IMG/VR virus record: IMGVR_UViG_2895778652_000001
Location: 1-64,000 of that record
From: a virus
Taxonomy: Duplodnaviria > Caudoviricetes
Reading direction: 5' to 3' (one strand)
DNA length: 64,000 nucleotides
Each line of letters starts with the position of its first letter. Position 1 is the first letter of the stretch. The position numbers were made by a program, and so were the translations under genes. The notes beneath the pieces were generated by a model. The model did no database searches. It saw nothing but the letters and a program-made list of their open reading frames with translations, and was not told the DNA's origin. Below are positions 21,663 to 57,443 of the stretch, in pieces.

Positions 21663-21791
21663 GCTGGTGTAAGAGTTTTTTAAGAGCCAACCCCGTAATT
21701 TTCCCCGTACAGAACGCTGTGAATCCCAACCACGCCACCTGGCAACTGGATGGGGCAGGCGACTGCTGTCACCCAGTACTGGAGGCTCAGC

Positions 21792-23444
21792 GTGAAATTT
21801 CTCTATCACGGCGACAACTTGACCGTTTTACGTGACGAGATTGCCGCTAGCAGCATTGACCTCGTCTACCTGGATCCCCCCTTTAATTCCCAGGCGGGCT
21901 ATAACATCCTCTTCAAAGACCATAAGGGTGACAGCAGCGACGCCCAGGCCTTCGCCTTCAAAGACACCTGGGTCTGGGGCGAGGAAAGTGAACAGGCCAT
22001 GCAGGACCTCCTAGTCCGGTATGGAGAACTAGCAACGTTCTTAGACGAGACAGTGCGGCGTCTGGGCAAGAACAGCCTCAGCGCCTACCTGGTCATGATG
22101 GCCGTCCGCCTCGTGGAACTGCACCGGGTACTGAAGCCCACTGGCAGTTTCTACCTGCACTGCGATCCAGCCGCCAGCCACTACCTGAAGATCGTGCTGG
22201 ACATCATCTTCGGCGCTCAACAGTTTCGCAATGAGATCATCTGGAAGCGCAGCAGCGCGCACAACGACAGCAAGCGCTGGGGTGACATTCACGACGTCAT
22301 CCTGTACTACGTCAAGGGGAAGAAATTTACCTGGAACGCTGTCCATACCCCCTACGACGAGAAGTACGTCCAGCAGTTCTACCGGCATGACGACGGGGAT
22401 GGGCGCGGGCCATATCGCTTGAGCGACATGCGCAGCCCCTCGCCACGTCCCAACCTGATGTATGAATGGAAGGGCTATCAGCCACACGCCAATGGCTGGG
22501 CGTACAAGCCCGAAACGATGCAGCGTTTGCACGACGAGGGGCGAATCCACTATCCCCCAGACAAAACGAAGCGGCTGGCCTTAAAGCGTTTTTTAAGAGA
22601 GATGCCTGGAGTCTCCATTCAGGACGTCATCACAGACATTGGTCCGCTCTCTTCTCAAGCTCAAGAGCGGCTGGGCTATCCCACCCAGAAGCCCGTGAGT
22701 CTGCTGGAACGCATCATCCAGGCCAGCAGCAATCCTGGCGACGTGGTGCTGGACCCGTTCTGCGGCTGCGGCACCACCATCAGCGCCGCCGAGAAGTTGG
22801 GGCGCGCCTGGGTAGGCATCGATGTCACCCACCTGAGCATCTCCCTGATCAAAGAACGACTCAGGACGGACCACCAGTTGCTGCCAGGCAAGGGATACGA
22901 GGAACTCTCGCTTCCCATCGACAAGGCCGGGGCTAGGTTCCTGGCTGAGAACAATCCCTTCCAGTTCCAGTTTTGGGCCGTCCATGAAATTGGTGGAACC
23001 GCGTTCGGGGCGGTAGGCGATGACCGGCGCGGGAAGAAGGGGCCGGACCGGGGTATCGACGGCCAGATCTTCTTCCGCACGCCTACTGGCGGCAAGATCG
23101 AGAAGGTGATCATCAGCGTCAAGGCGGGTCACAACATTGGACCAGCCATGGTCAGAGATCTTCGCGGCACAGTGGAGCGGGAGGCTGCTGCCATCGGGGT
23201 GCTGCTGCTCGCGCATGAGCCAACAAAAGGCATGATTCAGGAGACCGCTCAGGCAGGCTCTTACGAATGGGAGGGGCGGACCTTCCCGAAACTGCAGATC
23301 TTGACGGCGGCGGATGTGATCGACGGTAAACGCCCGCAACTGCCTGCTGGCTCAGTCAACGTAAGTCTGGAACGCAAACCGGCGCAGAGCCTGACGGGCA
23401 AGAAAGGGAAAGATAAGGGAGCGACGCCGCTGTTTGCTGATTAG
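21792..23444 (+). CDS. N4/N6 (beta-class) DNA methyltransferase with a C-terminal Mrr-like PD-(D/E)xK domain
   Basis: [16 protein letters not shown] and [11 protein letters not shown] motifs; C-terminal DRGIDG...ISVKAG. GGAGG RBS before GTG 21792. Confidence 0.88.
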
Positions 23445-25059: not shown

Positions 25060-26548
25060 GGGTGTCCAGAAGGACAGTAAGCTCCTCCAGTGTCGGAATT
25101 CTGCGTCCTCCAGGCTGATGAGCTACCCACGCTCGCCCTGCCTGGCACGCGGGTCATAGAGGGCCGATACGGCAACGAGCTGGGCCACAGCCTGTACGTC
25201 TTGAAAGTGCAGCACACACCACGCCTGAACGCCTGTCCCAAATGCGGAGTGTTTGGGGACTTGATCCGCTTCAGCCGCATCGAACAGCATCTCGCCGACA
25301 CCCCCATCTACGCCGCACACGTCCGGCTGGTGATCGAGCGGCAACGCTACCGCTGCAAGAGCTGCGGGGCCACCAGCCTCGAACCCCTGGCGTGGGTCCA
25401 CCCGGACCGCCAGGCCACCCGCCGCCTGGTGGAGGCCATCGAGCGCGACTGCCTGACCCTGAGCAACATCCAGACGGCCCATATGTACGGCGTGGACGAC
25501 AAAACCGTCCGCAACATCCAGGACAATCTGGTGCAGCGGCTGGAACGCAACGCGAAGTTCGAGACGCCCGAATGGCTGGGGATTGATGAGCTGTACATCG
25601 GCGACACGCCGCGCGCCGTGTTCACGAATATTGGCGACGAAACCCTGATCGAGATGCTCGAAGACCGCAGCAAGGCCACCATCATTACCTTCCTGCGCAC
25701 CCTGGACGCCCCCACAGTGCAGGCCGTGACCATCGATATGTGGCGGCCCTACCGGGACGCCGTCCGGGAGGTGCTGCCCCACGCGGCGGTGATCGTGGAC
25801 AAATGGCATGTGGTGCGGCTGGCGAACCATGCCCTGGAGCAGATTCGCAAGAGTTACCGCAAAGGTCTGGATCCCGCGCAGCGCCGTCGGATGCGCGGCA
25901 ACCGCTACACACTCCTCAAGCGGCGCAAGACCCTGACCGAAAAGGAGGTCCGGGACATCGAGAACTGGCGCGGGGAGTTCCCGGACCTGATCGCCGCCTA
26001 TGAGCTGAAAGAACGGTTCTATGGCGTGTATGACGCCAGCACGGCGTTGGAGGCCCGGCGCAGATACGCCCGCTGGCTTGCCAGCGTTCCCGAATCCCTG
26101 CGGATCAAGGGCGGGCCGTGGCATGAGCTGGTGACGGCCATGAGCAATTGGGAGGGCGAGATCATGGCGTATTTCGAGTATCGCCTGACGAACGCCTATA
26201 CCGAGAGCATGAACCGGGTCATCCGCGATATTGATCGCAGTGGACGCGGCCATTCCTTCCGCGTGTTGCGGGCGAAGGCGATCTTCGGGCAGGAATTCCG
26301 GGCGAAAAGCAAACTGGCCAGCCAGTCCAAACGGGCGAGGCGGGCCTTTGACGAGGATGCCCACCAGTATCTGGTCCACCTGGGCGAGCTGAGCGAGTGG
26401 GCCACCACCCGGAGGGAGCCGTCCAGCGATCTCATGTATGGAGCGGACCTGCACCTTGTGGCCGCTTATCTTCACGAGCAGGCCAGGCGGGCGCACAACC
26501 GCCACGGCGATTACTGGCAGTGGTAACAACAGGACTTTCCGGAGTCCC
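25060..26548 (+). mobile_element. ISL3-family insertion sequence (minimal extent)
   Basis: Left end GGGTGTCCAGAA; right end TTTCCGGAGTCCC just after the transposase stop. Inverted repeats are imperfect and no target-site duplication is visible. Confidence 0.55.
25090..26526 (+). CDS. ISL3-family transposase
   Basis: CPKC...RYRCKSC zinc finger; DDE motifs GIDE, TIDMW and TNAYTESMN; VDKWHV. Confidence 0.93.
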   Translation: MSEFCVLQADELPTLALPGTRVIEGRYGNELGHSLYVLKVQHTPRLNACPKCGVFGDLIRFSRIEQHLADTPIYAAHVRLVIERQRYRCKSCGATSLEPLAWVHPDRQATRRLVEAIERDCLTLSNIQTAHMYGVDDKTVRNIQDNLVQRLERNAKFETPEWLGIDELYIGDTPRAVFTNIGDETLIEMLEDRSKATIITFLRTLDAPTVQAVTIDMWRPYRDAVREVLPHAAVIVDKWHVVRLANHALEQIRKSYRKGLDPAQRRRMRGNRYTLLKRRKTLTEKEVRDIENWRGEFPDLIAAYELKERFYGVYDASTALEARRRYARWLASVPESLRIKGGPWHELVTAMSNWEGEIMAYFEYRLTNAYTESMNRVIRDIDRSGRGHSFRVLRAKAIFGQEFRAKSKLASQSKRARRAFDEDAHQYLVHLGELSEWATTRREPSSDLMYGADLHLVAAYLHEQARRAHNRHGDYWQW

Positions 26549-40896: not shown

Positions 40897-42966
40897 TCAG
40901 TCCGCCGCCTCGGCCACCACGGCGCTGAGCTGGGCATGGGTCAGCACCTGCGCCAGTTGTGGGCAGACGCTGTTGCCGATGCCACGCACCTGGCGGGCCT
41001 TGCTGATCGACTTGCCCTCAGCATCCCGCTCCAGCACGAACGAGTCTGGGAACCCCTGGCAGCGCGCCAGCTCACGCGGGCTGAGCATCCGCATCCCGAT
41101 GTCCGCCAGCACGTACCACTCGCCCCGGATGTTCAGGACCACCAGGCCGTCGCGGCTGTAAGGGGCCAGCGCGCCTTCTCCGAGATACGCCAGCAGGAAG
41201 GCATGGACCTCGCGCGCCCGATCCAGCTCCGCGCTGGTCAGGGCAGGCCAGCAGGTGACGGTGATCACACCCGTTTTCCCCCCGCTGCCCTGGGTCATCA
41301 CCGTGGGGGCAGGGGCCGTGATGTCCGCGCCGTTGCTGGTGCCGAGCTGGCGCATGAGGGTGGCTGCCGAGACGCCGAAACGGTCACGGGTGGGGATGGT
41401 CCGCAGCGGCACGTCCGCTTCCTGGCCTGGATCGCCCTCGCCGTTGCTGCCGTAGTACGCGGTCAGGCAGGCGGTGGTCAGGCCGTAGCTGTTCTTGCTG
41501 ACCACGGTGGGGAGCTGGGCCGTGACGGGGTAAACGCACTGGCTCCAACTGCGCTGGTTATCCGTCTTGAGCAGCGCGCCGGTCACCAGTGCCTGCGGAC
41601 CACCCTGGGCCAGCACGGTGCGCGCCGGGCGGTCAGCGGAATAGCTGGCGTCTTCGGGCGGGAGGCTGCCGCCGTTGTGCTGGACAAAGTGGGCGGTGGA
41701 GATCCCGAGTGGGGCCGCTGCGCCCGTGCCGCCGGTGGTCACGGTATACATCGGCTTGTCGGCACTCTGGCCCACGCTGCCCGTGTTGAACTTCAGCACC
41801 TGGCCCACCACCAGCCGCGCCCCGTTCGCCGTGGTGGTCACGGTGGCGGCTGGCATGTTCACGTCCACCGCGCGGGCCTGCTGACCGGGCGCTTCACCGT
41901 TGCGAGGGACAAAGTACGCGCCCAGCAGTTCGTTCTTGTTGTGGTTGGTGGTCACGGTGGAGAGCGGCGCATCCGGCGAGCGCGCAGGATTGCTGTGCTG
42001 TTTGTTGACCACATACGGGGCCAGCAGCGGGCGCGTCAGGCCGTGCGCTTCGTGGGCGGCGGTGATGGTGTTGAACGGCTGATCCAGGCCCTGACCTCTG
42101 AACCCTGCCCCACTGTGGTTGCAGGTCACGATGAACGGCTGGGCAGCCTCCAGAACGAAGCGACGCAGGCCCTGGGCCACGCGGTTCATGGTGTTCGTCA
42201 CCAGCGGCTTCTTCCGGTCAAAGATGGAGGGGCAGGGGATGTCCCAGTCGATGCAGGACGCGGCGGATTTGTAGGATTCCAGCAGGCCAGCTTTCACGCA
42301 GGGGTCTGTCGGGGCGGCGTGCGTGGGCGCGGGCCAGACGATGGGCAGGCCATCCCGGCGGGCGATCAGGAACAGGCGCTTCCTGATGGTGGGTGTGCCG
42401 TAATCGCAAGCCCGCAGCTCGCGGTGTTCCACCTGGTAGCCCTGATAGCGTAGTGCGTTCACGAAGCTGTTGAAGGTGCGGCCCTTCTGCGCGGGGTCCG
42501 GTCTGCCGTCGGGCAACAACGGGCACCAGTCGCGGAACTCCTCGACGTTCTCCAAGATGATCACGCGGGGTTTAACCAGCGCCGCCCAGCGGACCGCCAC
42601 CCAGGCCAGGCCACGAATGCCCCGATCCAGCAGCGCCGCACCTTTGGCTTTGCTGAAGTGCGTGCATGTGGGAGAGAACCAGCACAGCGCCACCGGCTGA
42701 CCGCGCGTGACCTCCAGTGGGTCCACATGCCACACGTCTTCCACGCTGTGGTGGCTGTGAGGGTGGTTGACGCGGTGCAGGCTGACGGCCACCGGATCGT
42801 GGTTGATGGCATGGTCCACTGGACGGCCCAATGCGGCCTCTATCCCAGAGCTGGCCCCGCCGATGCCAGCAAAGTTGTCGATTACGAGTTCACCCTCGGC
42901 CAGCAGCCCAGCGTTCAGGCGGACAGCGAGGTACGGGAACAGTGGGGCGTAGGTGGGTGACTTCAC
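40897..42966 (-). CDS. C5-cytosine DNA methyltransferase with a long repetitive variable region
   Basis: DNFAGIGGAS (motif I), SPTC (IV), ENV (VI), RKRLF (VIII), RMLSPRELARCQGFP (IX), GNSV (X). Confidence 0.92.
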   Translation of the reverse strand: MKSPTYAPLFPYLAVRLNAGLLAEGELVIDNFAGIGGASSGIEAALGRPVDHAINHDPVAVSLHRVNHPHSHHSVEDVWHVDPLEVTRGQPVALCWFSPTCTHFSKAKGAALLDRGIRGLAWVAVRWAALVKPRVIILENVEEFRDWCPLLPDGRPDPAQKGRTFNSFVNALRYQGYQVEHRELRACDYGTPTIRKRLFLIARRDGLPIVWPAPTHAAPTDPCVKAGLLESYKSAASCIDWDIPCPSIFDRKKPLVTNTMNRVAQGLRRFVLEAAQPFIVTCNHSGAGFRGQGLDQPFNTITAAHEAHGLTRPLLAPYVVNKQHSNPARSPDAPLSTVTTNHNKNELLGAYFVPRNGEAPGQQARAVDVNMPAATVTTTANGARLVVGQVLKFNTGSVGQSADKPMYTVTTGGTGAAAPLGISTAHFVQHNGGSLPPEDASYSADRPARTVLAQGGPQALVTGALLKTDNQRSWSQCVYPVTAQLPTVVSKNSYGLTTACLTAYYGSNGEGDPGQEADVPLRTIPTRDRFGVSAATLMRQLGTSNGADITAPAPTVMTQGSGGKTGVITVTCWPALTSAELDRAREVHAFLLAYLGEGALAPYSRDGLVVLNIRGEWYVLADIGMRMLSPRELARCQGFPDSFVLERDAEGKSISKARQVRGIGNSVCPQLAQVLTHAQLSAVVAEAAD

Positions 42967-43787
42967 AGGGGGCCTCCAAACAGCGGACCAAACTCCGGCT
43001 GCGGGTGAGTGGGTGGAGGCGAGTTGAGGAAACCGCGCATGGCGTCCACCACGCGGGCGAACTGGGCGTCCTCTTCGGGGAGGGGTGCATTGAGGTTGTG
43101 ATACGGCATCGCCAGATCCCAGAAGCGGTTGCGCCACGTCCAGCGGTTCTCCAGGGCCAGCGTGTTGCCGCAGACCACCTGCGCGGGCAGGCCCCAGAGG
43201 GTCAGGTTCAGGAAGGTGGCCCAGCAGGAGCGGGCGCTCAGGTCCTGGGCGGTCCAGCAGACGTTGAGCGGGTGGCCGCCGCGCTCGATCAGCACCTCAG
43301 TGAAGGCCAGGATCATGCCGCCCGTGCCGCAGGCGGGTTCGTTGCAGTGCAGCACCTCACCGGGGGTCAGATCGGCGCTCAGGGTCATCTGGGCCATCAG
43401 GCGGCAGATGCTGCGCGGGGTGTAAAACTCCGCCCCAGCAGCACGGTCCAGCCGATGCCCAATCTCCATGTAGACCGGACCCAGCAGATCGGTATAGGGC
43501 CGGTCATCCATGTCGGTGATCAACTGGTGGAACGCCCGCACGATTACGCCGAGGTCATGCTCGTCCAGACCCCGCACGGCGTCCAGATACGTCTCTTCCT
43601 GCTGGCTCAGCGTCAGGGCAGCGGCCCCGGCCTGGACAAGACGGCGGTAAGCCTCGGACACACGGACGCGCCGGACCTCCTCCAGAATGCGGAAGAACGG
43701 CAGGCGCAGCGGATCACCGATGAAGCCCTTCTCGCGGTCCGCCTCGGCAGACTGGCGCTGATAGGCGCGGGCCATCTTAGACGTCAT
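42963..43787 (-). CDS. Short HsdM/N6-methyltransferase-like SAM-binding protein
   Basis: DLLGPVY, EFYTP, EPACGTGGM, GNTL; no NPPY/F motif is visible. Confidence 0.75.
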   Translation of the reverse strand: MTSKMARAYQRQSAEADREKGFIGDPLRLPFFRILEEVRRVRVSEAYRRLVQAGAAALTLSQQEETYLDAVRGLDEHDLGVIVRAFHQLITDMDDRPYTDLLGPVYMEIGHRLDRAAGAEFYTPRSICRLMAQMTLSADLTPGEVLHCNEPACGTGGMILAFTEVLIERGGHPLNVCWTAQDLSARSCWATFLNLTLWGLPAQVVCGNTLALENRWTWRNRFWDLAMPYHNLNAPLPEEDAQFARVVDAMRGFLNSPPPTHPQPEFGPLFGGPL

Positions 43788-44637
43788 TTAAGCCGCCGTC
43801 CTGGCCCAACCAATCCAAGCTGCCGTGCGTGCCACGCAGCCGTCTCCAGCCCACCGGATTGATCCACAGGCATTCCTGACGGTGCCCGTTGCTCTGGGCG
43901 CGTGCGGTGGTGCTGACCAGGTGCCAGCCCGCGAGCTGCTCGGAGTACTGCGCGCTCGGGTAGCCGCTCATGACCACTGGGCCGACGTGCCCGAGTACCG
44001 CATCGATCAGCGCCTGATGTTCAGCAGGCGTCTTCAATTCATGGTCATACAGCCGCCCAGCCTTGTGGGTTTCTCCGAGGTAGGGCGGATCGATGTACAG
44101 CAGCGTCTCTGAGTTGTTGACCCGTTGGATCAGCGCCAGAGCGTCCAGGTTGCTGATCTGGGCATTCATCAGGCGGTCAGCCGCGAAGGCGATCCGCTCA
44201 GGCAGGTTGCGCCAGGCTGTGAGGGGCGTCTGCTGATCGACACCCCGGAAGCGCCAGCCGGTCTTGCGCTGCATGGCCCGTTTGCCGTACTGCTGCCAGG
44301 TGATCGTGATCATGCAGCGGGCGCGTTCCAGATCCGGCAATTCGTCCGGGGCCAGCAGGGCCGCGCAACATGCCTCGTACTCGTCCAGCGCCCAGGGCGT
44401 CAGGGAAACCTGCTCCGCCAGTGCCTGTGGCTGGGTTCGCAGCACCCGGAAGACCGCCACCACGTTGCCGTCCAGATCGTTGATGATCTCGGTGGCGGCC
44501 TCGGGCTTGAGGAAGAACACGCCGCCAGAACCGAAGAACGGCTCGCAATACACCTTGTGGGGCGGCAGGTGCCCGATGACCCACTCGGCAATGCGCCACT
44601 TGCTGCCAGGCCAGCGCAGGACCGGGGCAGCCGTCAC
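43777..44637 (-). CDS. Dam-like (D12 class) adenine methyltransferase
   Basis: LRWPGSK, EPFFGSGGV, NDLD, YIDPPY. Confidence 0.92.
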   Translation of the reverse strand: MTAAPVLRWPGSKWRIAEWVIGHLPPHKVYCEPFFGSGGVFFLKPEAATEIINDLDGNVVAVFRVLRTQPQALAEQVSLTPWALDEYEACCAALLAPDELPDLERARCMITITWQQYGKRAMQRKTGWRFRGVDQQTPLTAWRNLPERIAFAADRLMNAQISNLDALALIQRVNNSETLLYIDPPYLGETHKAGRLYDHELKTPAEHQALIDAVLGHVGPVVMSGYPSAQYSEQLAGWHLVSTTARAQSNGHRQECLWINPVGWRRLRGTHGSLDWLGQDGGLNDV

Positions 44638-44861: not shown

Positions 44862-45217
44862 GCCGCCCCCGCCTTCGCCGTGGCCTGCCGGGCGAGCAGC
44901 ACCAGGGCCTCGAAACACACCGGATCGTTGTGCATGGGCCGCACCGTCCAACGCGGCATCAGGGCCAGCACCTCACCCTCGCTGACCGACTCCGGCAACC
45001 CCTCCAGAATCTGCTGCACCAGACTCCGCAACACGCCGATCCGCACCGGGTCCGCGCCCGCGCAGTAATTGACGGCATACACGCCACCGCCCACGCGGTT
45101 CGCCACCACGCGAACGCCAAACAGCACGCGGTGACAGCCGAACTCCCACTGGGCCGTCTCAGAAGTCAGGCGCAGCACGTCATAGGACTCGGTGGTGGGA
45201 GCGAGAGAGAAGATCAC
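44858..45217 (-). CDS. Hypothetical protein
   Basis: Coupled ORF. Confidence 0.55.
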   Translation of the reverse strand: MIFSLAPTTESYDVLRLTSETAQWEFGCHRVLFGVRVVANRVGGGVYAVNYCAGADPVRIGVLRSLVQQILEGLPESVSEGEVLALMPRWTVRPMHNDPVCFEALVLLARQATAKAGAA

Positions 45218-45843
45218 AGCCAGCCCCGCGCGCCCAGTCTTTCCATGAGGACCGTCTGCTGCATCGCTGCCGCATCCCGCAGGAAATCCAGTGTCACCAG
45301 AAAGCGGCGCTCAATGGTGAACGTCGCGTGGTAGCCGTACAGGATGTTGCGCGCCCGCTGACTCAGGGCTTCCGTTTCGTCCTCTCCGGCCCAGCCGTAT
45401 ATCGGCCCACCCAGGAGGTGCGCGTGCGCTTCCAGGCGGCAGGCGTGCCAGTCCATCGCCTTGACGGCGGGGTCCAGCTCCACGGGCACGCCGTAGTGGG
45501 CCGCGCACGCTGCCCAGACGCGCGCCTCGACTTTCTGGTAGTCCGGCAACAGGCGCTTGAGCGGGGCCGACACGTCCCCCACGTAACATTCTGCGGCGTC
45601 GTGGACCAGGCCCTGGAGCAGCAGCCCGGCGTCCCGGTGGCCACGCTCGGCCAGCAGTTCCACCACCAGTAGGCTGTGCTGCGCCACCGAGAAGGCGCGA
45701 TTGAGATGGCCGGTGAAGCGGTTGATGTGGGCCAGCGCGTGCGCCACATCAGCGTCCTTGATGTGGGCGGGCGTGGGGCTGAGGAAATCGAAGGCAACGT
45801 GCCCATGGGTCTGATTCCAGGCAGGATGGGTGGGGGCAGTCAC
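45214..45843 (-). CDS. HD-domain phosphohydrolase (YfbR-like 5'-deoxynucleotidase)
   Basis: INRFTGH...FSVAQHS...LVHDAAECYVGD..PLK. Confidence 0.85.
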   Translation of the reverse strand: MTAPTHPAWNQTHGHVAFDFLSPTPAHIKDADVAHALAHINRFTGHLNRAFSVAQHSLLVVELLAERGHRDAGLLLQGLVHDAAECYVGDVSAPLKRLLPDYQKVEARVWAACAAHYGVPVELDPAVKAMDWHACRLEAHAHLLGGPIYGWAGEDETEALSQRARNILYGYHATFTIERRFLVTLDFLRDAAAMQQTVLMERLGARGWL

Positions 45844-47513: not shown

Positions 47514-47924
47514 TCACGCCGCCACCTGTCCTTCCAGCCCGCTGGCCGCCTTCAGATCCCGCTCGAACTCAGCGCGCACTTTCTTCCAGCTCTTGACCAC
47601 GTCGTTCAGGCGGCGGGTGCGGCGCGCGACGTGGAATGTGCCGCCGTCGGTGCTGACCTCAAAACCAAGCACGCGTAGGCCGGTGATGACGCGGCTGGCG
47701 CTGAAGTTGAACTCGCGGCTGGCGGTGGTGGTGATCGCGCGTCCCTCAATGAACTTCAGTACTTCAGCGAACGCGACGAACTTCAGGACGCACTTGGGGC
47801 CGACAACACCGATGAAGGGCACGTCGTAGCCGCCCTTGCTCAGCGCCAGGCCGCAGCACGCGCACTGGGCGGCGTCCGCGTGGGGGAAGGTGTGGGGCTT
47901 GCTTTCGGGGGCGGTGTGCGTCAT
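47514..47924 (-). CDS. First gene of the leftward early operon (Cys motif)
   Basis: GGAG RBS; CACCG...VGPKC. Confidence 0.65.
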   Translation of the reverse strand: MTHTAPESKPHTFPHADAAQCACCGLALSKGGYDVPFIGVVGPKCVLKFVAFAEVLKFIEGRAITTTASREFNFSASRVITGLRVLGFEVSTDGGTFHVARRTRRLNDVVKSWKKVRAEFERDLKAASGLEGQVAA

Positions 47925-47998
47925 GCTTTCTCCGTTACTCCCTCGCCTGGATTTGCTTAGCGGCATTCGGCGGGGGAGTGCCTTTTTGGCTTGAAACA

Positions 47999-48051
47999 AT
48001 CTTACCATCTACTGGGGATATTATGCAACAATATCTCCAGTAGATAGGAAG
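47999..48051. promoter_or_regulatory. Left early promoter/operator (O_L-like) with a 39-bp inverted repeat
   Basis: ATCTACTGGGGATATT-N7-AATATCTCCAGTAGAT (15/16 match); leftward promoter TTGCAT-N18-TAAGAT. Confidence 0.75.
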
Positions 48052-48109: not shown

Positions 48110-49486
48110 ATGCCCGGAACATCCAATTGGGGGCCAGAAGAGGTTGACGCCGCTTTGAAGAAACGAGGCGCTGACGCCATTCTTGCCGTGCCACCGGGGC
48201 CAGGGCTGAAGCAAACCGCCGTCTGGGCGCGTGCGGCGCTAACTGCAAACCATCTACGCAAAATGCAGGAGGCCTGCCAGCGACTGGCTGTTTTCCAGAC
48301 CCCCCTCGCCATGGGCCTGTCCGTTGCCATTACCAGCCAGGTGGGTGAACACGATGAGGCTCTGGACATGCCCATGCCCCGCGCCAGTTCTGCGCGCACC
48401 GATCAGGACGGGCTGGCATGGTTCTACTTGGGGCGCAGCTCCTCTCTGGCCGCTCTGGGCCGTCCTGGGGAAGCGCTGGTGGAACTTGGGCGCGGCATTG
48501 CCGCCGCAGAGGCCGCAGGGCTGCCAGAGCGCGCCCAGCTCCTGCGGTTCCACGCGCGGGTGATTGAGGTGCGGCTCGGAATCGCGGTCCCTGAGATCAT
48601 CCACCAGGACCTTGCTGAACCGATGGCCGAAGGCCGCAGGAGCTGGCACAGCGGAAATTACGCGGCTGCACTGTTGCAGCGGGGGGAGTACCGCCGCGCC
48701 TCACTGGCCTCAGAGGCTGGGAACATGTACCACACTGCCGCGCTGGCCTTGCAGGGCATCGACGGCGGCGATCATCTCCGCAGCGCTTCCCAGATCGCCG
48801 CCCGAACCTGGGCCAAAGCCTGGGCCGGGCAGACCGTCCCCCGCGTCTCTGATCTGGGCCACTCGCTGGTCGGCAGTTACGCCGTCCTGGCGCTGGCTCT
48901 TGATTACTCGCGCACGGTGACAGGGGCCAGGCTGGTGGGCGATCTGATCGGGGCGACACCTCCCCGGCAGGCGGACATGGCCGCGCTCTGGGCTGGAATC
49001 GGTCTTCAGGCCCTTGCGCGCGGCGGCACTGTCGCAGACCCCCTCAACACTGTCGCCACACTGTCTGACGCGCTGAGGCGACTGGGCAGCACAGATGACG
49101 TGCTGAGCATCATGACGCGGCTGATGCCAGAGGCGGTGGTGATTGCCAGCGTGGGACCAGGGGCACACCGGGAGATCGCGCTGGCTGCGAACACGCTGAT
49201 GACGCGTTCAGGCTCCCCCACCACGGCGCAGGTGCTGGCTGCTTATGCCCAGCAGAACGTCCAGACGCGGCCAGGACGCGCACCCAACTTTGGGGCCATC
49301 CTGGTGGCCCTGGAACACCTGATTGAGACCGCCGCAGATCAGGAGCGGGTGGGCCTGGAACACCAGTGGAGAATGGCGCGGGAGGCCGTCCTGTTTGAGC
49401 ATGGGGGCCGGTGGGCGCTGCCAGGGGCAATCACAGGAACTTACCATTGCGGACAGCCCTCCAGTGGCCGCACACTGGAGGCATGA
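48110..49486 (+). CDS. All-alpha TPR-like protein, candidate peptide receptor
   Basis: AGGAG RBS; TPR-like helices (AWFYLGRSSSLAALGRPGEALVELGRG; NYAAALLQRGEYRRA); ATGA-coupled to a small secreted peptide. Confidence 0.65.
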   Translation: MPGTSNWGPEEVDAALKKRGADAILAVPPGPGLKQTAVWARAALTANHLRKMQEACQRLAVFQTPLAMGLSVAITSQVGEHDEALDMPMPRASSARTDQDGLAWFYLGRSSSLAALGRPGEALVELGRGIAAAEAAGLPERAQLLRFHARVIEVRLGIAVPEIIHQDLAEPMAEGRRSWHSGNYAAALLQRGEYRRASLASEAGNMYHTAALALQGIDGGDHLRSASQIAARTWAKAWAGQTVPRVSDLGHSLVGSYAVLALALDYSRTVTGARLVGDLIGATPPRQADMAALWAGIGLQALARGGTVADPLNTVATLSDALRRLGSTDDVLSIMTRLMPEAVVIASVGPGAHREIALAANTLMTRSGSPTTAQVLAAYAQQNVQTRPGRAPNFGAILVALEHLIETAADQERVGLEHQWRMAREAVLFEHGGRWALPGAITGTYHCGQPSSGRTLEA

Positions 49487-49617
49487 AAAAATTACTGCTA
49501 ACGGTCCTCTGTCTGATCCTGGCGACTGCTCCTGCTGGTGCAATCAAACTGAAGGGCAGTGATGGGTCACAGGGCAGCCCTTCCAGGATCGGCAACGATC
49601 CCTGCCACGGCTGCTGA
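49483..49617 (+). CDS. 44-aa secreted propeptide (candidate signalling peptide)
   Basis: GGAGG precedes the ATG. Sec signal MKKLLLTVLCLILATAPAGA (A-x-A site) followed by IKLKGSDGSQGSPSRIGNDPCHGC. Confidence 0.75.
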   Translation: MKKLLLTVLCLILATAPAGAIKLKGSDGSQGSPSRIGNDPCHGC

Positions 49618-49620
49618 GTC

Positions 49621-50184
49621 TTACTTTTCTTTGAACGCGGCCAGCGCGCCGACCAACTGACCCATAACCCGGCCCCGGCCAGCAGCAAGCTGCGCGGGCA
49701 GTGCGAACAATCTGCCGTCGTCCAGTTCGGTGATGACGATTCCTTCCAGAGTGCTGTCTGGGTCAATTTGGACAATATGCCCGGCAGGAACTGTCCACTC
49801 TCCGTGGAGAGGACTTTTTAATTCCAACTCGATGAGGTTACGAGAATCCTCACCGTGCCCCCAGGGCTTTGGCCGGAACGTCCTGAAAGACCGCTGCTGC
49901 GGCAGAGGGATGTGGAACAACTTCCACGCCTCTTTGTCGGTAATTCCGAGCGTGCCTATGAAACGCTCAGCGGTGGCCTGCCGCATGCGGGCAATGTCCA
50001 GCTCCCCGGTGATGTACATGCCGAGGGTGCTGAGCGCGATATTGGATTTCTTTGCGAAGTCCTCTAGGAAAATCTCTCTGGAATCCAGAATGTGCTGAAA
50101 CACTTGCCCGCGATGCTGAGCCGTCTCAACACTCTCTGGGAGTGGAGTTGCGCGGCGTCGCGTGTAGCGTTTTGTGTCAGTCAT
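49621..50184 (-). CDS. CI-like phage repressor
   Basis: N-terminal XRE-like HTH (LEDFAKKSNIALSTLGMYITG) and a C-terminal S24-like beta domain; divergent from a cro-like gene. Confidence 0.75.
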   Translation of the reverse strand: MTDTKRYTRRRATPLPESVETAQHRGQVFQHILDSREIFLEDFAKKSNIALSTLGMYITGELDIARMRQATAERFIGTLGITDKEAWKLFHIPLPQQRSFRTFRPKPWGHGEDSRNLIELELKSPLHGEWTVPAGHIVQIDPDSTLEGIVITELDDGRLFALPAQLAAGRGRVMGQLVGALAAFKEK

Positions 50185-50396
50185 AGCACTTCCTATCTGC
50201 AAGTTTACCAGTAGCTGGGAGAATTATACAAGGGTCCATGTGAAGTAAACCCCGTTGCCAGCGCAAAAATACGCGGCAAGCTAAGTGTTCTGATCGGTAT
50301 TAGCCACAAGCTGATTAAGTGGTGGCGCGTTTCACCGTCTTCCAAAAATCCCCAGTTAGTGGTATTTTGTTGTCATGATTTCAGTAGCTGGTGAAA
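50185..50396. promoter_or_regulatory. cI/cro divergent control region with three operator-like sites
   Basis: (C)CAG-N4-TGGT sites at 50205-50224, 50348-50365 and 50378-50395. Promoters TTGTAT/TAAACT (leftward) and TTCCAA/TATTTT (rightward). Confidence 0.7.
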
Positions 50397-50695
50397 AGGT
50401 ACGCGCTGCCCGCTTGGCGGCGGGTATCCGATCTGTCCAGGCAGCAGCCCGCGCAGCGCACTTGAACTACAAGACGATTGAGGCATTTGAGGGGCGTGGC
50501 GACGCCAAGGTACCCACCAATCCAAAAATGGAAACCCTGCTCGCGCTGGCTGCTGCCTACGGCTGTAGCCCACGCGATTTTACCGAGAACCCCGAGGAGT
50601 GGGATCGTGCAGCCCAAGCACTGGGGCTGCCAGCCACTCTTGGCGCAGTCGTAGGAGGTCAGTACATAGAACCCGCCCTCAACCCCACGTCCTAA
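50375..50695 (+). CDS. Cro-like XRE HTH regulator
   Basis: GEKVRAARLAAG...YKTIEAFEGRG...NPKMETLLALAAAYGC. Confidence 0.82.
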   Translation: MISVAGEKVRAARLAAGIRSVQAAARAAHLNYKTIEAFEGRGDAKVPTNPKMETLLALAAAYGCSPRDFTENPEEWDRAAQALGLPATLGAVVGGQYIEPALNPTS

Positions 50696-50747: not shown

Positions 50748-51455
50748 ATGACCAGCATTGTAGCAGTTCAAGAATTCCAGGGCGAGGCACGGGCGGACAG
50801 CCGCCATCTCGCTGCCCGCATGGAAAACAAGCACAAAAGCCTGATGAGTCTCATTGATGATTATGCCGAGGATTTTAGTCGCCTTGGACACCTGCGATTT
50901 GAAATGGAGACTGTTAAAAACAGCGTTGGAGCCGCAAATAAATCCCGTCATGCCCTCCTGAACGAAGACCAGTGCTACTTCCTCCTGACTCTGGTTCGCA
51001 ACAGCGACGCCACCGTCCCCATGAAGCGCGAGCTGGTCCAGGCGTTCGGGGAGTACCGCCGCCGCGTCGCCCTGGCCCCTGCGCCGATCCTGCCCACCGA
51101 TCCTCTGGAACTGCTGGAGCTGAGCCTGCGCGGCATGAAGCAGACCCGTGAGGAGGTCCGGGTGTTGCAGGCCACCACCGCCGCGCTGGAGGTCCGACTG
51201 GACAATACGCCCATTGCCATGCACCCCGAGATGGAGGCCACCATCTACGCGCTGTGTCAGGAGCTGGCCCGCGTCATCCCCGGCGGGTACAGCGCCGCGT
51301 ACCGGGCGTTCAAGAGCAAATTCGGGGAAGCGGGCCTGCCTCTGGCGAAATACACCAGTCTGCCCGCCCGCCGCTTCCCAGAGGGCTGTGGCTATCTGCG
51401 TGGCCTGATCGCGCAGCACAGCCAGGATGGCCGCTTGATTGAGGCGAGGGCATGA
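50748..51455 (+). CDS. rha: Rha-family regulator / antirepressor with an ORF6C-like C-terminus
   Basis: ADSRHLAARMENKHKS...LLNEDQCYFLLTLVRNS...KRELVQAF. Confidence 0.85.
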   Translation: MTSIVAVQEFQGEARADSRHLAARMENKHKSLMSLIDDYAEDFSRLGHLRFEMETVKNSVGAANKSRHALLNEDQCYFLLTLVRNSDATVPMKRELVQAFGEYRRRVALAPAPILPTDPLELLELSLRGMKQTREEVRVLQATTAALEVRLDNTPIAMHPEMEATIYALCQELARVIPGGYSAAYRAFKSKFGEAGLPLAKYTSLPARRFPEGCGYLRGLIAQHSQDGRLIEARA

Positions 51456-56474: not shown

Positions 56475-57443
56475 TCACCAGTCCAGATTCACAGCCCGGT
56501 CCTGCTGCCTCGCATGATTGACGTACAGCGAACTCGTCTCCACCGAGGCGTGGCGCAGGTGGTCACGCACCTCCAGCAGATCGCGTGTCTGGCGATAGAC
56601 CTCGGTGCCTGCTGTGTGGCGCAGGCCGTGAACCTCGCGCCCCACATACCGCACGCCAGTCACCTTGCACAGCTCGCGCAGGCTGTCGCTGATGCCTTTT
56701 CGGGTCTCCCAATTCAGGACGCGCGGCCCGAGCTTCGGCGTCATCTCTACCCAGCGCGAGAGTGCCACGCCGCACCTCCGCGACACCGGCACCTCCTGAC
56801 GCTTCTGCCGCTTGCCGGTCACGGTCAGGTAAGGCCGCTCCGCCGTCAGGTGTAGGTCTGCCCGCATCAAACCCGCCATCTCCCCCACCCTCAGCCCACA
56901 GTGCGCACCCAGCAACACCATGACCTTCTGTTGTGGATCCGCCTGTCTCAGTAGCAACTCAATGTCCGCCTTGCTGTAGGGCTGGCGCTTCTGCCACGCC
57001 GGAACCGGATCGGGGGCGGCCCGCACGTCCGTCAGCGGGGCCGCGTCGCTCGCTCCTGACCACCGGAGCGCTGCGAAGAGCGCCCGCGCTGCCGCCAGTC
57101 GCACCCGCACGCTGCCTGGGGCCAGCCCGGAGGCTTCCAGATGGCGGGCGTACCCGTACCCGTCATTCGGACGGGGCCGCAGCAGGCTCATTCCGCCAGG
57201 GCCAGCCCAGTTCAGGAAGGCGGACAGTCCGGCGCGGTAGCTCATCAGGGTGTTCTGGCTGACCCGCGCGCCTGCACTTCCCCTGGTGACCAGAAATGCC
57301 TCGGTCAGATCCCACAGGCCCGCCTCGTCCCGCTCGGCAGCCCAGCGCAGGGCCTCTCGCCTCAGCGCGTCGGGTTCCAGCCGGGCAAGCCGTTCCGAGC
57401 GGGCGGCAAGGTCCAGTCGGGCGGCCATCAGATCAAGAGACAT
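56475..57443 (-). CDS. Tyrosine recombinase, paralog of 14459-15433
   Basis: GLRVGE, GKRQK, HGLRH, HLRHASVETSSLY. Confidence 0.93.
   Translation of the reverse strand: MSLDLMAARLDLAARSERLARLEPDALRREALRWAAERDEAGLWDLTEAFLVTRGSAGARVSQNTLMSYRAGLSAFLNWAGPGGMSLLRPRPNDGYGYARHLEASGLAPGSVRVRLAAARALFAALRWSGASDAAPLTDVRAAPDPVPAWQKRQPYSKADIELLLRQADPQQKVMVLLGAHCGLRVGEMAGLMRADLHLTAERPYLTVTGKRQKRQEVPVSRRCGVALSRWVEMTPKLGPRVLNWETRKGISDSLRELCKVTGVRYVGREVHGLRHTAGTEVYRQTRDLLEVRDHLRHASVETSSLYVNHARQQDRAVNLDW

Follow-up and report, generated by a model that had tools for sequence, protein, structure and literature searches.

Excerpts of PMC9765709, PMC10075063 and the 2026 review PMC13389391 describe quorum sensing by a tetratricopeptide repeat (TPR) receptor and an exported propeptide as a trait of the Bacillota, and phage arbitrium as a trait of phages of the Bacillus group or Bacillales. 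Literature searches on Deinococcus or Thermus, judged by title and start of the abstract, returned no description of such a system. Here, we analyzed 64,000 nucleotides (nt) of a virus of the Caudoviricetes (positions 1 to 64,000 of IMG/VR record IMGVR_UViG_2895778652_000001; hereafter the window), which encode a TPR-like receptor candidate and, directly downstream, a small candidate propeptide. The pair is probably a Rap-Phr/arbitrium-like peptide-sensing module with a new receptor family, situated in the switch of a Deinococcus-type tailed prophage. Given its recurrence in every close relative, the pair is a strong candidate for virus peptide signaling outside Gram-positive bacteria. The pair consists of the following features.

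48110..49486, plus strand: gene of the receptor-like protein, an open reading frame (ORF) for 458 amino acids; the product is predicted to be a cytoplasmic, all-helical TPR-like superhelix without a helix-turn-helix (HTH) domain and with a disordered tail (residues 441-458)
49483..49617, plus strand: propeptide gene, 44 codons and stop, with equivalents at all strong homologue places described below
49483-49542, plus strand: signal-like residues 1-20 of the propeptide, seen in the sequence, with the variable linker next
49597-49614, plus strand: conserved propeptide tail DPCHGC, from the sequence and the tail profile

The closest parallel is offered by the Rap-Phr cassettes of Bacillus, including those of the phages phi3T and phi105. 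As in these cassettes, a predicted cytoplasmic TPR-type receptor without HTH, which would act on a partner protein, is followed directly by a small propeptide gene that can overlap the receptor gene. The propeptide likewise has a Sec-type signal and a conserved C-terminal part. Further points of likeness are that the peptide gene often has its own promoter and that the cassette resides on mobile elements and prophages. The pair differs from Rap-Phr in the lack of any sequence similarity, in its host phylum (Deinococcota, not Bacillota), in a tail with two invariant cysteines (CxxC), and in that no N-terminal three-helix effector domain was identified here. Arbitrium, the AimR-AimP-AimX system of SPbeta-like and other Bacillus phages, also lies within a lysis-lysogeny control region. 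The present pair has such a location, with CI-like, Cro-like and Rha-like genes adjoining and with integrase, head and packaging genes on the contig. Both systems have propeptides of about 40-50 amino acids whose functional part would be a C-terminal hexapeptide, and peptide tails that diversify with receptor clades. Many relatives of the pair, the window not among them, have a third ORF in the aimX position. AimR, however, has an N-terminal HTH and binds DNA, whereas HTH families were found in 0/27 members of the present receptor family in Pfam. The window also contains no aimX, its peptide stop lying 3 nt from the stop of a convergent repressor gene, and the pair differs further in showing no sequence homology and in its CxxC peptide.

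Two other described systems are relevant. NprR-NprX and PlcR-PapR combine a TPR superhelix with an exported propeptide encoded next to it, and the last 5-8 residues of that propeptide serve as the signal. Their receptors, however, are HTH-bearing chromosomal regulators of Bacillus. MalT domain III, the SUPR/TPR-like sensor of STAND regulators, is the best structural match of the receptor model. In MalT, a large ATPase regulator that also has a LuxR-type HTH, this domain senses maltotriose, whereas the present repeat domain stands alone, is paired with a peptide gene, and has neither an NTPase nor a DNA-binding domain.

Of 111 genomes of the same genus, 18 have a match to the receptor profile, as do 36 of 364 across the phylum. 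Matches to profile A1 with E below 1e-40, termed strong here, were confined to three genera of the Deinococcaceae, the family of the window. They comprise 24 full-length places, including two identical copies within a single genome, and one copy in three pieces. A small same-strand ORF lies downstream at 24/24 full-length strong places and at the broken copy, which answers the proposal of an earlier sequence-only reading to check homologues for an adjacent signal-peptide ORF. At the strong places, these ORFs have 34-82 codons and start between -4 and +85 nt relative to the receptor stop. Each ORF opens with a basic N-terminus and a hydrophobic run, continues through an AxA-type site into a Pro-, Ala-, Ser- and Thr-rich linker, and closes with a pair of cysteines at the C-terminus. 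A 4-nt overlap of receptor and peptide genes occurs in five loci. The cysteine spacing is CxxC at 23 places and CxxxC at one (L036), where the pair directly follows the signal and precedes 14 further residues. Receptors with a paired peptide gene share only 17-29% identity with the window receptor. The 27-locus set behind the Pfam counts, the counts of the upstream hexamer TAnnnT, the tail profile and the Mantel test includes four weak-match loci that were kept for having the peptide and stand outside the 24/24 count. From this set, the tail profile was built from 27 peptides of 26 loci, with L036 omitted for its CxxxC and a second peptide of L039 added. Cleavage sites were assigned at the first AxA, a crude rule that often picks an early site, and exact sites are not relied on.

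Two arrangements stand apart from the usual cassette. In the broken copy (G010:C7:578-2006; L024, L033, L035), an in-frame TGA and shifts of frame divide the receptor homologue into three pieces, yet the propeptide ORF downstream, which ends in MDPCPWC, is intact. Another genome has the complete cassette twice, with the two identical copies close to either end of one contig (G117:C8:3311-4765 and 97727-99181; L011, L028), which may represent a terminal repeat or a circular element assembled with overlap.

Conservation in the small ORF is restricted to the last 5-7 residues, (D/G/E)-P-C-x-x-C, with W for P in some tails. Anchored at the second cysteine, the tail profile has both cysteines in 27/27 peptides, Pro at -4 in 21/27, Gly at -1 in 14/27, and Asp, Gly or Glu at -5 in 18/27. 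Positions further upstream are unconserved, and 21/27 peptides end exactly at the second cysteine. The linker varies freely in sequence and in length, from 0 to about 55 residues. Conservation of the tail alone behind such a linker fits a pro-peptide and not a product that folds or acts at the membrane. On the receptor tree, the tails cluster by clade. GVGPC[G/S]GC is found in three loci, while NDPCAEC is identical in two loci (receptors 51% identical), and PCPKC and DPC[L/M]GC occur in two loci each (receptors 37% and 51% identical, respectively). Across 26 loci (L036 omitted), more similar receptors go with more similar tails when identity is compared at the six variable tail positions (Mantel r 0.615, reached by 0/5000 permutations). 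In 11/11 locus pairs with a receptor identity of at least 35%, the tails are more alike than the 12 residues preceding them. Co-varying peptide C-termini, another check named in the sequence-only reading, are therefore found among relatives. As linked genes share their history, we read the Mantel result as co-inheritance with selection on the tail, not as binding.

The receptor-like ORF has 458 codons and carries AGGAG 5 nt upstream of its ATG. In the public gene call (P0001), an internal Met serves as the start, and the product of 372 amino acids is 86 residues short (window 48110-48367). This call is too short because the closest relatives (P0002-P0007; 43-60% identity except P0007 with 33%) align from residue 1 of the 458-amino-acid frame, which backs the full length. 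Among 1.84 billion representatives, 25 protein relatives of 436-546 amino acids were found at E <=0.001. The two named ones are a hypothetical protein of Deinococcus peraridilitoris (tetratricopeptide repeat protein in UniRef) and a hypothetical protein from a plasmid of Deinococcus sp. A protein search with profile A3 gave 4 matches. An AlphaFold2 (AF2) model of the 458-amino-acid protein, built with the protein relatives as alignment, has a mean predicted local distance difference test score (pLDDT) of 90.1 and a predicted template modeling score of 0.88, with 26 helices and disorder from residue 441. The all-helical TPR-like protein of 458 amino acids proposed from the sequence is consistent with this model, and TPR proteins top the fold lists. 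The sequence itself matches nothing in Pfam or PHROG, and the receptor profile finds nothing better than E 0.2 among all PDB sequences. Generic TPR families of Pfam match at most 2/27 members of the receptor family and no ATPase or LuxR family matches any of them; the window receptor model is one continuous helical repeat. An N-terminal hydrophobic segment is absent in 27/27 receptors, and the protein is predicted to be cytoplasmic. Near-invariant positions in the 27 receptors are G157, G192, Y257, P340, P350 and W420, with no catalytic motif conserved. Searches of the receptor against plasmids and phages (tblastn) gave no match, and no relative of the window locus was found among genome, metagenome and viral contigs in a related-locus search.

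Fold comparisons place the receptor model among helical-repeat sensors. In structural alignment with VIA against 48,161 chains, the top match is MalT domain III (Z 16.0), with 303 of 366 residues aligned. Rap proteins follow with RapI at Z 13.1 and phi105 Rap with its peptide at 11.9, NprR and PlcR reach 12.9 and 12.1, and the AimR matches, over about 290 residues, reach 12.0 (SPbeta, 291 residues) and 11.8 (phAimR); ComR has 9.6. The tool's own guidance treats Z values under about 13 as common among helical repeats. The alignments to PlcR, NprR, ComR and AimR begin past the HTH domains (AimR from residue 43), which together with the Pfam result bears out the earlier claim that the receptor has no N-terminal HTH. 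Those to NprR and PlcR are confined to the first ~200 residues of the model. RapI aligns model residues 31-202 to its chain residues 14-210, and no distinct effector domain was identified. The best Foldseek rows against PDB are all TPR proteins, weak and generic, and the structure neighbors in the Atlas are MalT/LuxR-type STAND regulators and CHAT-TPR proteins, also generic. Because the Z range of the RRNPPA proteins is generic, we read the receptor as a TPR-like sensor-type superhelix and do not take the matches as proof of kinship. Features shared with RRNPPA systems are the predicted cytoplasmic TPR-type superhelix (AF2 model, fold lists) and an adjacent propeptide gene with predicted export and a tail that alone is conserved (24 strong places and the broken copy). 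The N-terminal HTH present in all RRNPPA members except Rap is absent. It is likely that the receptor works like an RRNPPA receptor, as the anatomy matches these systems point by point and the absence of an HTH matches Rap. Membership in the RRNPPA or arbitrium families is not supported, given that the sequences reveal no homology and no HTH and that the window has no aimX.

Expression of the propeptide gene appears to be organized in two ways across the family. The frame opens at GTG 49411 in the ORF list (49411..49617, plus strand) and contains an in-frame ATG at 49483. The relatives identify this ATG as the real start, as their equivalent ORFs all open with M-K/R/Q/N and then a hydrophobic run. 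The sequence-only reading had chosen the same ATG within an ATGA overlap and had seen a GGAGG before it; the sequence and the starts of the relatives agree on the former, and the GGAGG is present at 49477-49481 with a spacing of 1 nt. The peptide ATG (49483-49485) and the receptor TGA (49484-49486) overlap in the same orientation. Candidate signal-peptidase sites predicted from the 44-amino-acid product are AGA/IK or ATA/PA (the slash marks the cut). The end of the receptor gene contains one more feature.

49458..49481, plus strand: perfect 9-bp inverted repeat CCTCCAGTG / CACTGGAGG, with the GGAGG in the 3' RNA arm

The hairpin of 49458-49481 folds with a minimum free energy of -20.2 kcal/mol (z -2.98; 2/200 shuffles equally stable). 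The peptide start is preceded by a TAnnnT hexamer at a distance of 5-8 nt in 19/27 loci (17 of those at 6 nt), compared to 179/7998 for all ATG/GTG in the same loci, an enrichment of about 30-fold. By its position, the hexamer in most relatives is a putative -10-like box of the peptide gene itself, in the geometry of a leaderless transcript. Leaderless expression is common in Deinococcus according to excerpts of PMC4007540 and PMC12340547. The window and L014, its nearest relative in the genome set, have no perfect box and instead show the 4-nt overlap with GGAGG or GAAGG, which suggests translational coupling. For the window, the ATGA overlap and a GGAGG hidden within the 9-bp hairpin probably link production of the peptide to translation of the receptor. 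A C-terminal Ala, which the [A/G]TGA overlap needs, is found in 7/7 close receptor homologues, and from this Ala putative peptide genes are placed at P0002-P0007. A scan for sigma-70 promoters returned 0 sites, and no terminator was found between the peptide gene and the repressor gene.

The pair lies among regulatory genes of a tailed phage, which provide the context for a role in the lysis-lysogeny switch.

47514..48008, minus strand: conserved early gene of 164 amino acids with Cys pairs, an ORF divergent from the receptor gene
48001..48051, no strand assigned: operator-like inverted repeat between the 164-amino-acid gene and the receptor gene, with 22-nt arms that are 86% complementary and 7 nt apart
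49621..50202 (likely start ATG 50184), minus strand: lambda-CI-like repressor gene, from its structure model, convergent with the peptide gene
50208..50364, no strand assigned: cI/cro intergenic region with two half-sites related to the 48001-48051 repeat
50375..50695, plus strand: Cro-like small HTH protein (Pfam HTH_31, E 1.6e-5, just below the curated cut-off; PHROG repressor family), divergent from the CI-like gene
50748..51455, plus strand: Rha-family regulator or antirepressor-like protein (Pfam Phage_pRha, E 2e-11, above cut-off; PHROG 2657, 373, 518)
56475-57443, strand not given: integrase

The position between a left operator and a cI-like gene, as proposed from the sequence alone, holds up with the repeat at 48001-48051 on one side and a convergent gene whose model matches lambda-type repressors on the other. 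The core CTACTGGNGATATT occurs twice in this repeat and has no other mismatch-free copy in the window. The half-sites in the cI/cro region (50208-50225 and 50345-50364) are 80% and 78% complementary to the 48-kb arm. The product of the 164-amino-acid gene has no match in Pfam, PHROG or PDB, and homologues of the gene are divergent upstream of the receptor in 7/26 other loci (tblastn). The stops of the peptide gene (49617) and the repressor gene (49621) are separated by 3 nt. The AF2 model of the CI-like repressor (pLDDT 89) combines an XRE-type HTH (residues ~18-95) with a beta domain like the C-terminal domain of lambda cI. Foldseek ranks a lambda-186 hybrid repressor first (E 2.7e-4), and the next repressor is lambda repressor 3bdn at rank 5. 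VIA gives Z 8.1-8.7 for the HTH and Z 6.4 for the lambda cI C-terminal domain 1kca (residues 113-187, 74 aligned). In an alignment of 16 CI-like homologues, four of them shortened at the C-terminus, no Ser or Lys column is conserved at >=90%, thus RecA-type self-cleavage looks unlikely. From these sequences, prophage induction may need an input other than RecA-type cleavage. A CI-like homologue is convergent downstream of the pair in 15/26 other loci, in line with the repressor linkage that the sequence-only reading had expected of relatives. Replication genes lie on the same contig, which beyond the window also has genes for terminase, portal, head protease and major head protein, as in a tailed phage.

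In many relatives, a third small ORF of about 55-85 amino acids lies between the peptide and CI-like genes, on the receptor strand and in the aimX position. Examples are L011:1051-1248(-), L015:1032-1211(-), L017:3262-3462(+), L021:1015-1254(-), L031:960-1160(-) and L037:3243-3464(+), among others. These ORFs have a shared core pattern, often run antisense into the 3' end of the repressor gene, and belong to no Pfam family.

Outside the Deinococcaceae, weak profile matches occur in other families of the same order; 11 were examined and nine further ones were left aside. A signal-peptide CxxC ORF lies downstream in 4/11 (L038, L039, L048, L042). No such ORF follows the other 7/11 (L040, L041, L043, L044, L046, L047, L049), which were set aside as unrelated TPR proteins. 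The four loci were selected for having the peptide and are illustrative only. In three of them the tail abuts the AxA site, as in ..ALA/QWCTRC, ..AYA/AWCPRC (paralogue ..AYA/EICVRC) and ..AFA/GWCANCF, so that a cut by signal peptidase alone would release 6-7 residues. Flanks were scanned for two of these three, L038 and L039, and contain ordinary chromosomal genes (aminotransferase, metallophosphoesterase, DUF1175) rather than phage genes. Versions of the pair that belong to the host lineage itself may therefore exist. At L039, two tandem paralogous propeptide genes with the tails EICVRC and AWCPRC, each after AYA, lie behind a single receptor-like gene of 602 amino acids.

A mechanism consistent with this anatomy would begin with export of the 44-amino-acid product by Sec and a cut by signal peptidase I after an AxA-type site. 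Outside the cell, the remaining 24-28 residues would be shortened to roughly the six at the C-terminus (..DPCHGC), in which the two cysteines may form a disulfide loop or bind metal. The peptide would accumulate with the number of infected or lysogenic cells and re-enter through an Opp-type permease. Peptide uptake is plausible given 27 matches to the OppA/DppA family PF00496 in the host genome. Inside the cell, the peptide might bind the concave face of the TPR superhelix. As no HTH is found in the family, a Rap-like mode of protein contact is a reasonable guess. The likeliest partner of the receptor would be the convergent CI-like repressor without a conserved Ser/Lys pair, with the Rha-type antirepressor as an alternative. 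By analogy with arbitrium, the peptide would favor lysogeny.

Several observations weigh against a peptide-sensing module. No sequence homology of the receptor to RRNPPA proteins or to any solved structure was found, and Foldseek of the receptor model against PDB and BFVD returned nothing at E 0.001 or better. The RRNPPA fold matches (Z 12-13) fall within the background range of helical repeats, and the sugar-sensing MalT domain III ranks above them. Without an HTH, the output of the receptor is a guess. The third small ORF of relatives has no room in the window and no homologue on its contig, leaving no AimX-like output here. The Mantel signal is to some degree expected from linkage without binding. 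At the peptide gene of the window, the GGAGG is nearer to the ATG than the usual Shine-Dalgarno spacing, and CACACT takes the place of a perfect TAnnnT box. Deinococcus has an outer membrane, and we know of no route for the peptide across it. Paired cysteines are, to our knowledge, not a feature of characterized RRNPPA pheromones.

Among alternative explanations, a linked pair without communication fares best, and we consider it unlikely. The exported CxxC peptide would then act outside the cytoplasm, in redox or metal chemistry, superinfection exclusion or a bacteriocin-like role, and the TPR protein would be a regulator, chaperone or immunity partner. A terminal CxxC on an exported peptide is reminiscent of motifs for thiol-disulfide exchange and metal binding, and exclusion genes often adjoin the repressor in prophages. 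The conservation of the pair is compatible with such roles, and neither an HTH nor another output domain ties the TPR protein to transcription. Conservation of the last 5-7 residues behind a linker of 0 to about 55 residues, however, is the pattern of a pro-peptide, and the whole mature product would be 6-7 residues in distant relatives. Co-variation of the tail with a cytoplasmic protein would also be hard to explain if the two never meet.

A receptor that senses a small molecule, as MalT domain III does, or a host protein is a rather improbable explanation. On this view, the small ORF would encode a secreted product of its own, inherited along with the receptor gene but independent of it. 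MalT domain III as the best structural match (Z 16.0, 303 residues) and the STAND and CHAT-TPR neighbors in the Atlas point in this direction, as does the -10-like box that the peptide gene itself has in 19/27 loci. Independence is difficult to reconcile with a peptide gene at 24/24 strong places and at the broken copy, next to receptors only 17-29% identical to that of the window. It also fits poorly with the 4-nt gene overlap in five loci, with tails that track receptor clades, and with the absence of an ATPase or STAND domain.

It is very unlikely that the small ORF encodes the precursor of a modified peptide resembling ribosomally synthesized and post-translationally modified peptides (RiPPs), with the TPR protein as recognition or scaffold protein for the modification. 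A conserved C-terminal Cys pair behind a variable leader is a layout known from RiPP precursors, and helical repeat proteins can serve as scaffolds. The N-terminus, though, is a Sec-type signal and not a RiPP leader, no catalytic motif is conserved in the 27 receptors, and the neighbors are phage regulators and the CI-like repressor, with no adjacent modifying enzyme. A chance frame in G+C-rich DNA, for which the shortness of the 44-codon ORF and a start other than the first choice of the ORF list might speak, is effectively excluded because only 2 ORFs on both strands of the 64-kb window (128 kb of strand), one of them this propeptide, combine a basic N-terminus and a hydrophobic run with a CxxC in the final 7 residues, while the same three-part layout recurs at all strong homologue places despite unalignable DNA and the TAnnnT box is ~30-fold enriched.

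The peptide-sensing module remains the reading that we favor. It agrees with the RRNPPA-analogous system proposed in the sequence-only reading, which had named the lack of a TPR fold, or of an adjacent signal-peptide ORF in homologues, as computational results that would speak against it; neither was obtained. A conserved and diversifying pair in the immunity region of a Deinococcus-type phage would extend such signaling to a distant phylum with an outer membrane. Its new elements would be a receptor family of unrelated sequence and peptides with a cysteine pair as a class of their own. The pair also offers an explanation for the induction of a prophage whose CI-like repressor lacks self-cleavage residues. 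More tentatively, the pair could represent the first family of peptide-based communication of phages, and of their hosts, outside the Bacillota. Such a Deinococcota-wide family would rely on a Sec-exported propeptide that yields a CxxC hexapeptide, possibly with a redox-sensitive disulfide loop, and on a new kind of TPR receptor without HTH, which reads the peptide and governs a CI-type repressor incapable of self-cleavage. If so, information on cell density or redox state would replace the RecA route to induction. The chromosomal, non-phage versions (peptides of 6-7 residues, one tandem pair) would then indicate that the host lineage uses the same language. The system is readily tractable, with a short peptide that can be synthesized, a confident receptor model and existing Deinococcus genetics.

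The phage region contains further genes apart from the switch. Three DNA methyltransferase genes are found in the window at 21750-23444, 40897-43137 and 43777-44637, together with a gene for a phosphatase-like protein of deoxynucleoside monophosphates (dNMP) at 45214-45843. A transposase gene (25090-26526, plus strand; PHROG 5749, E 1e-107) lies inside the element.

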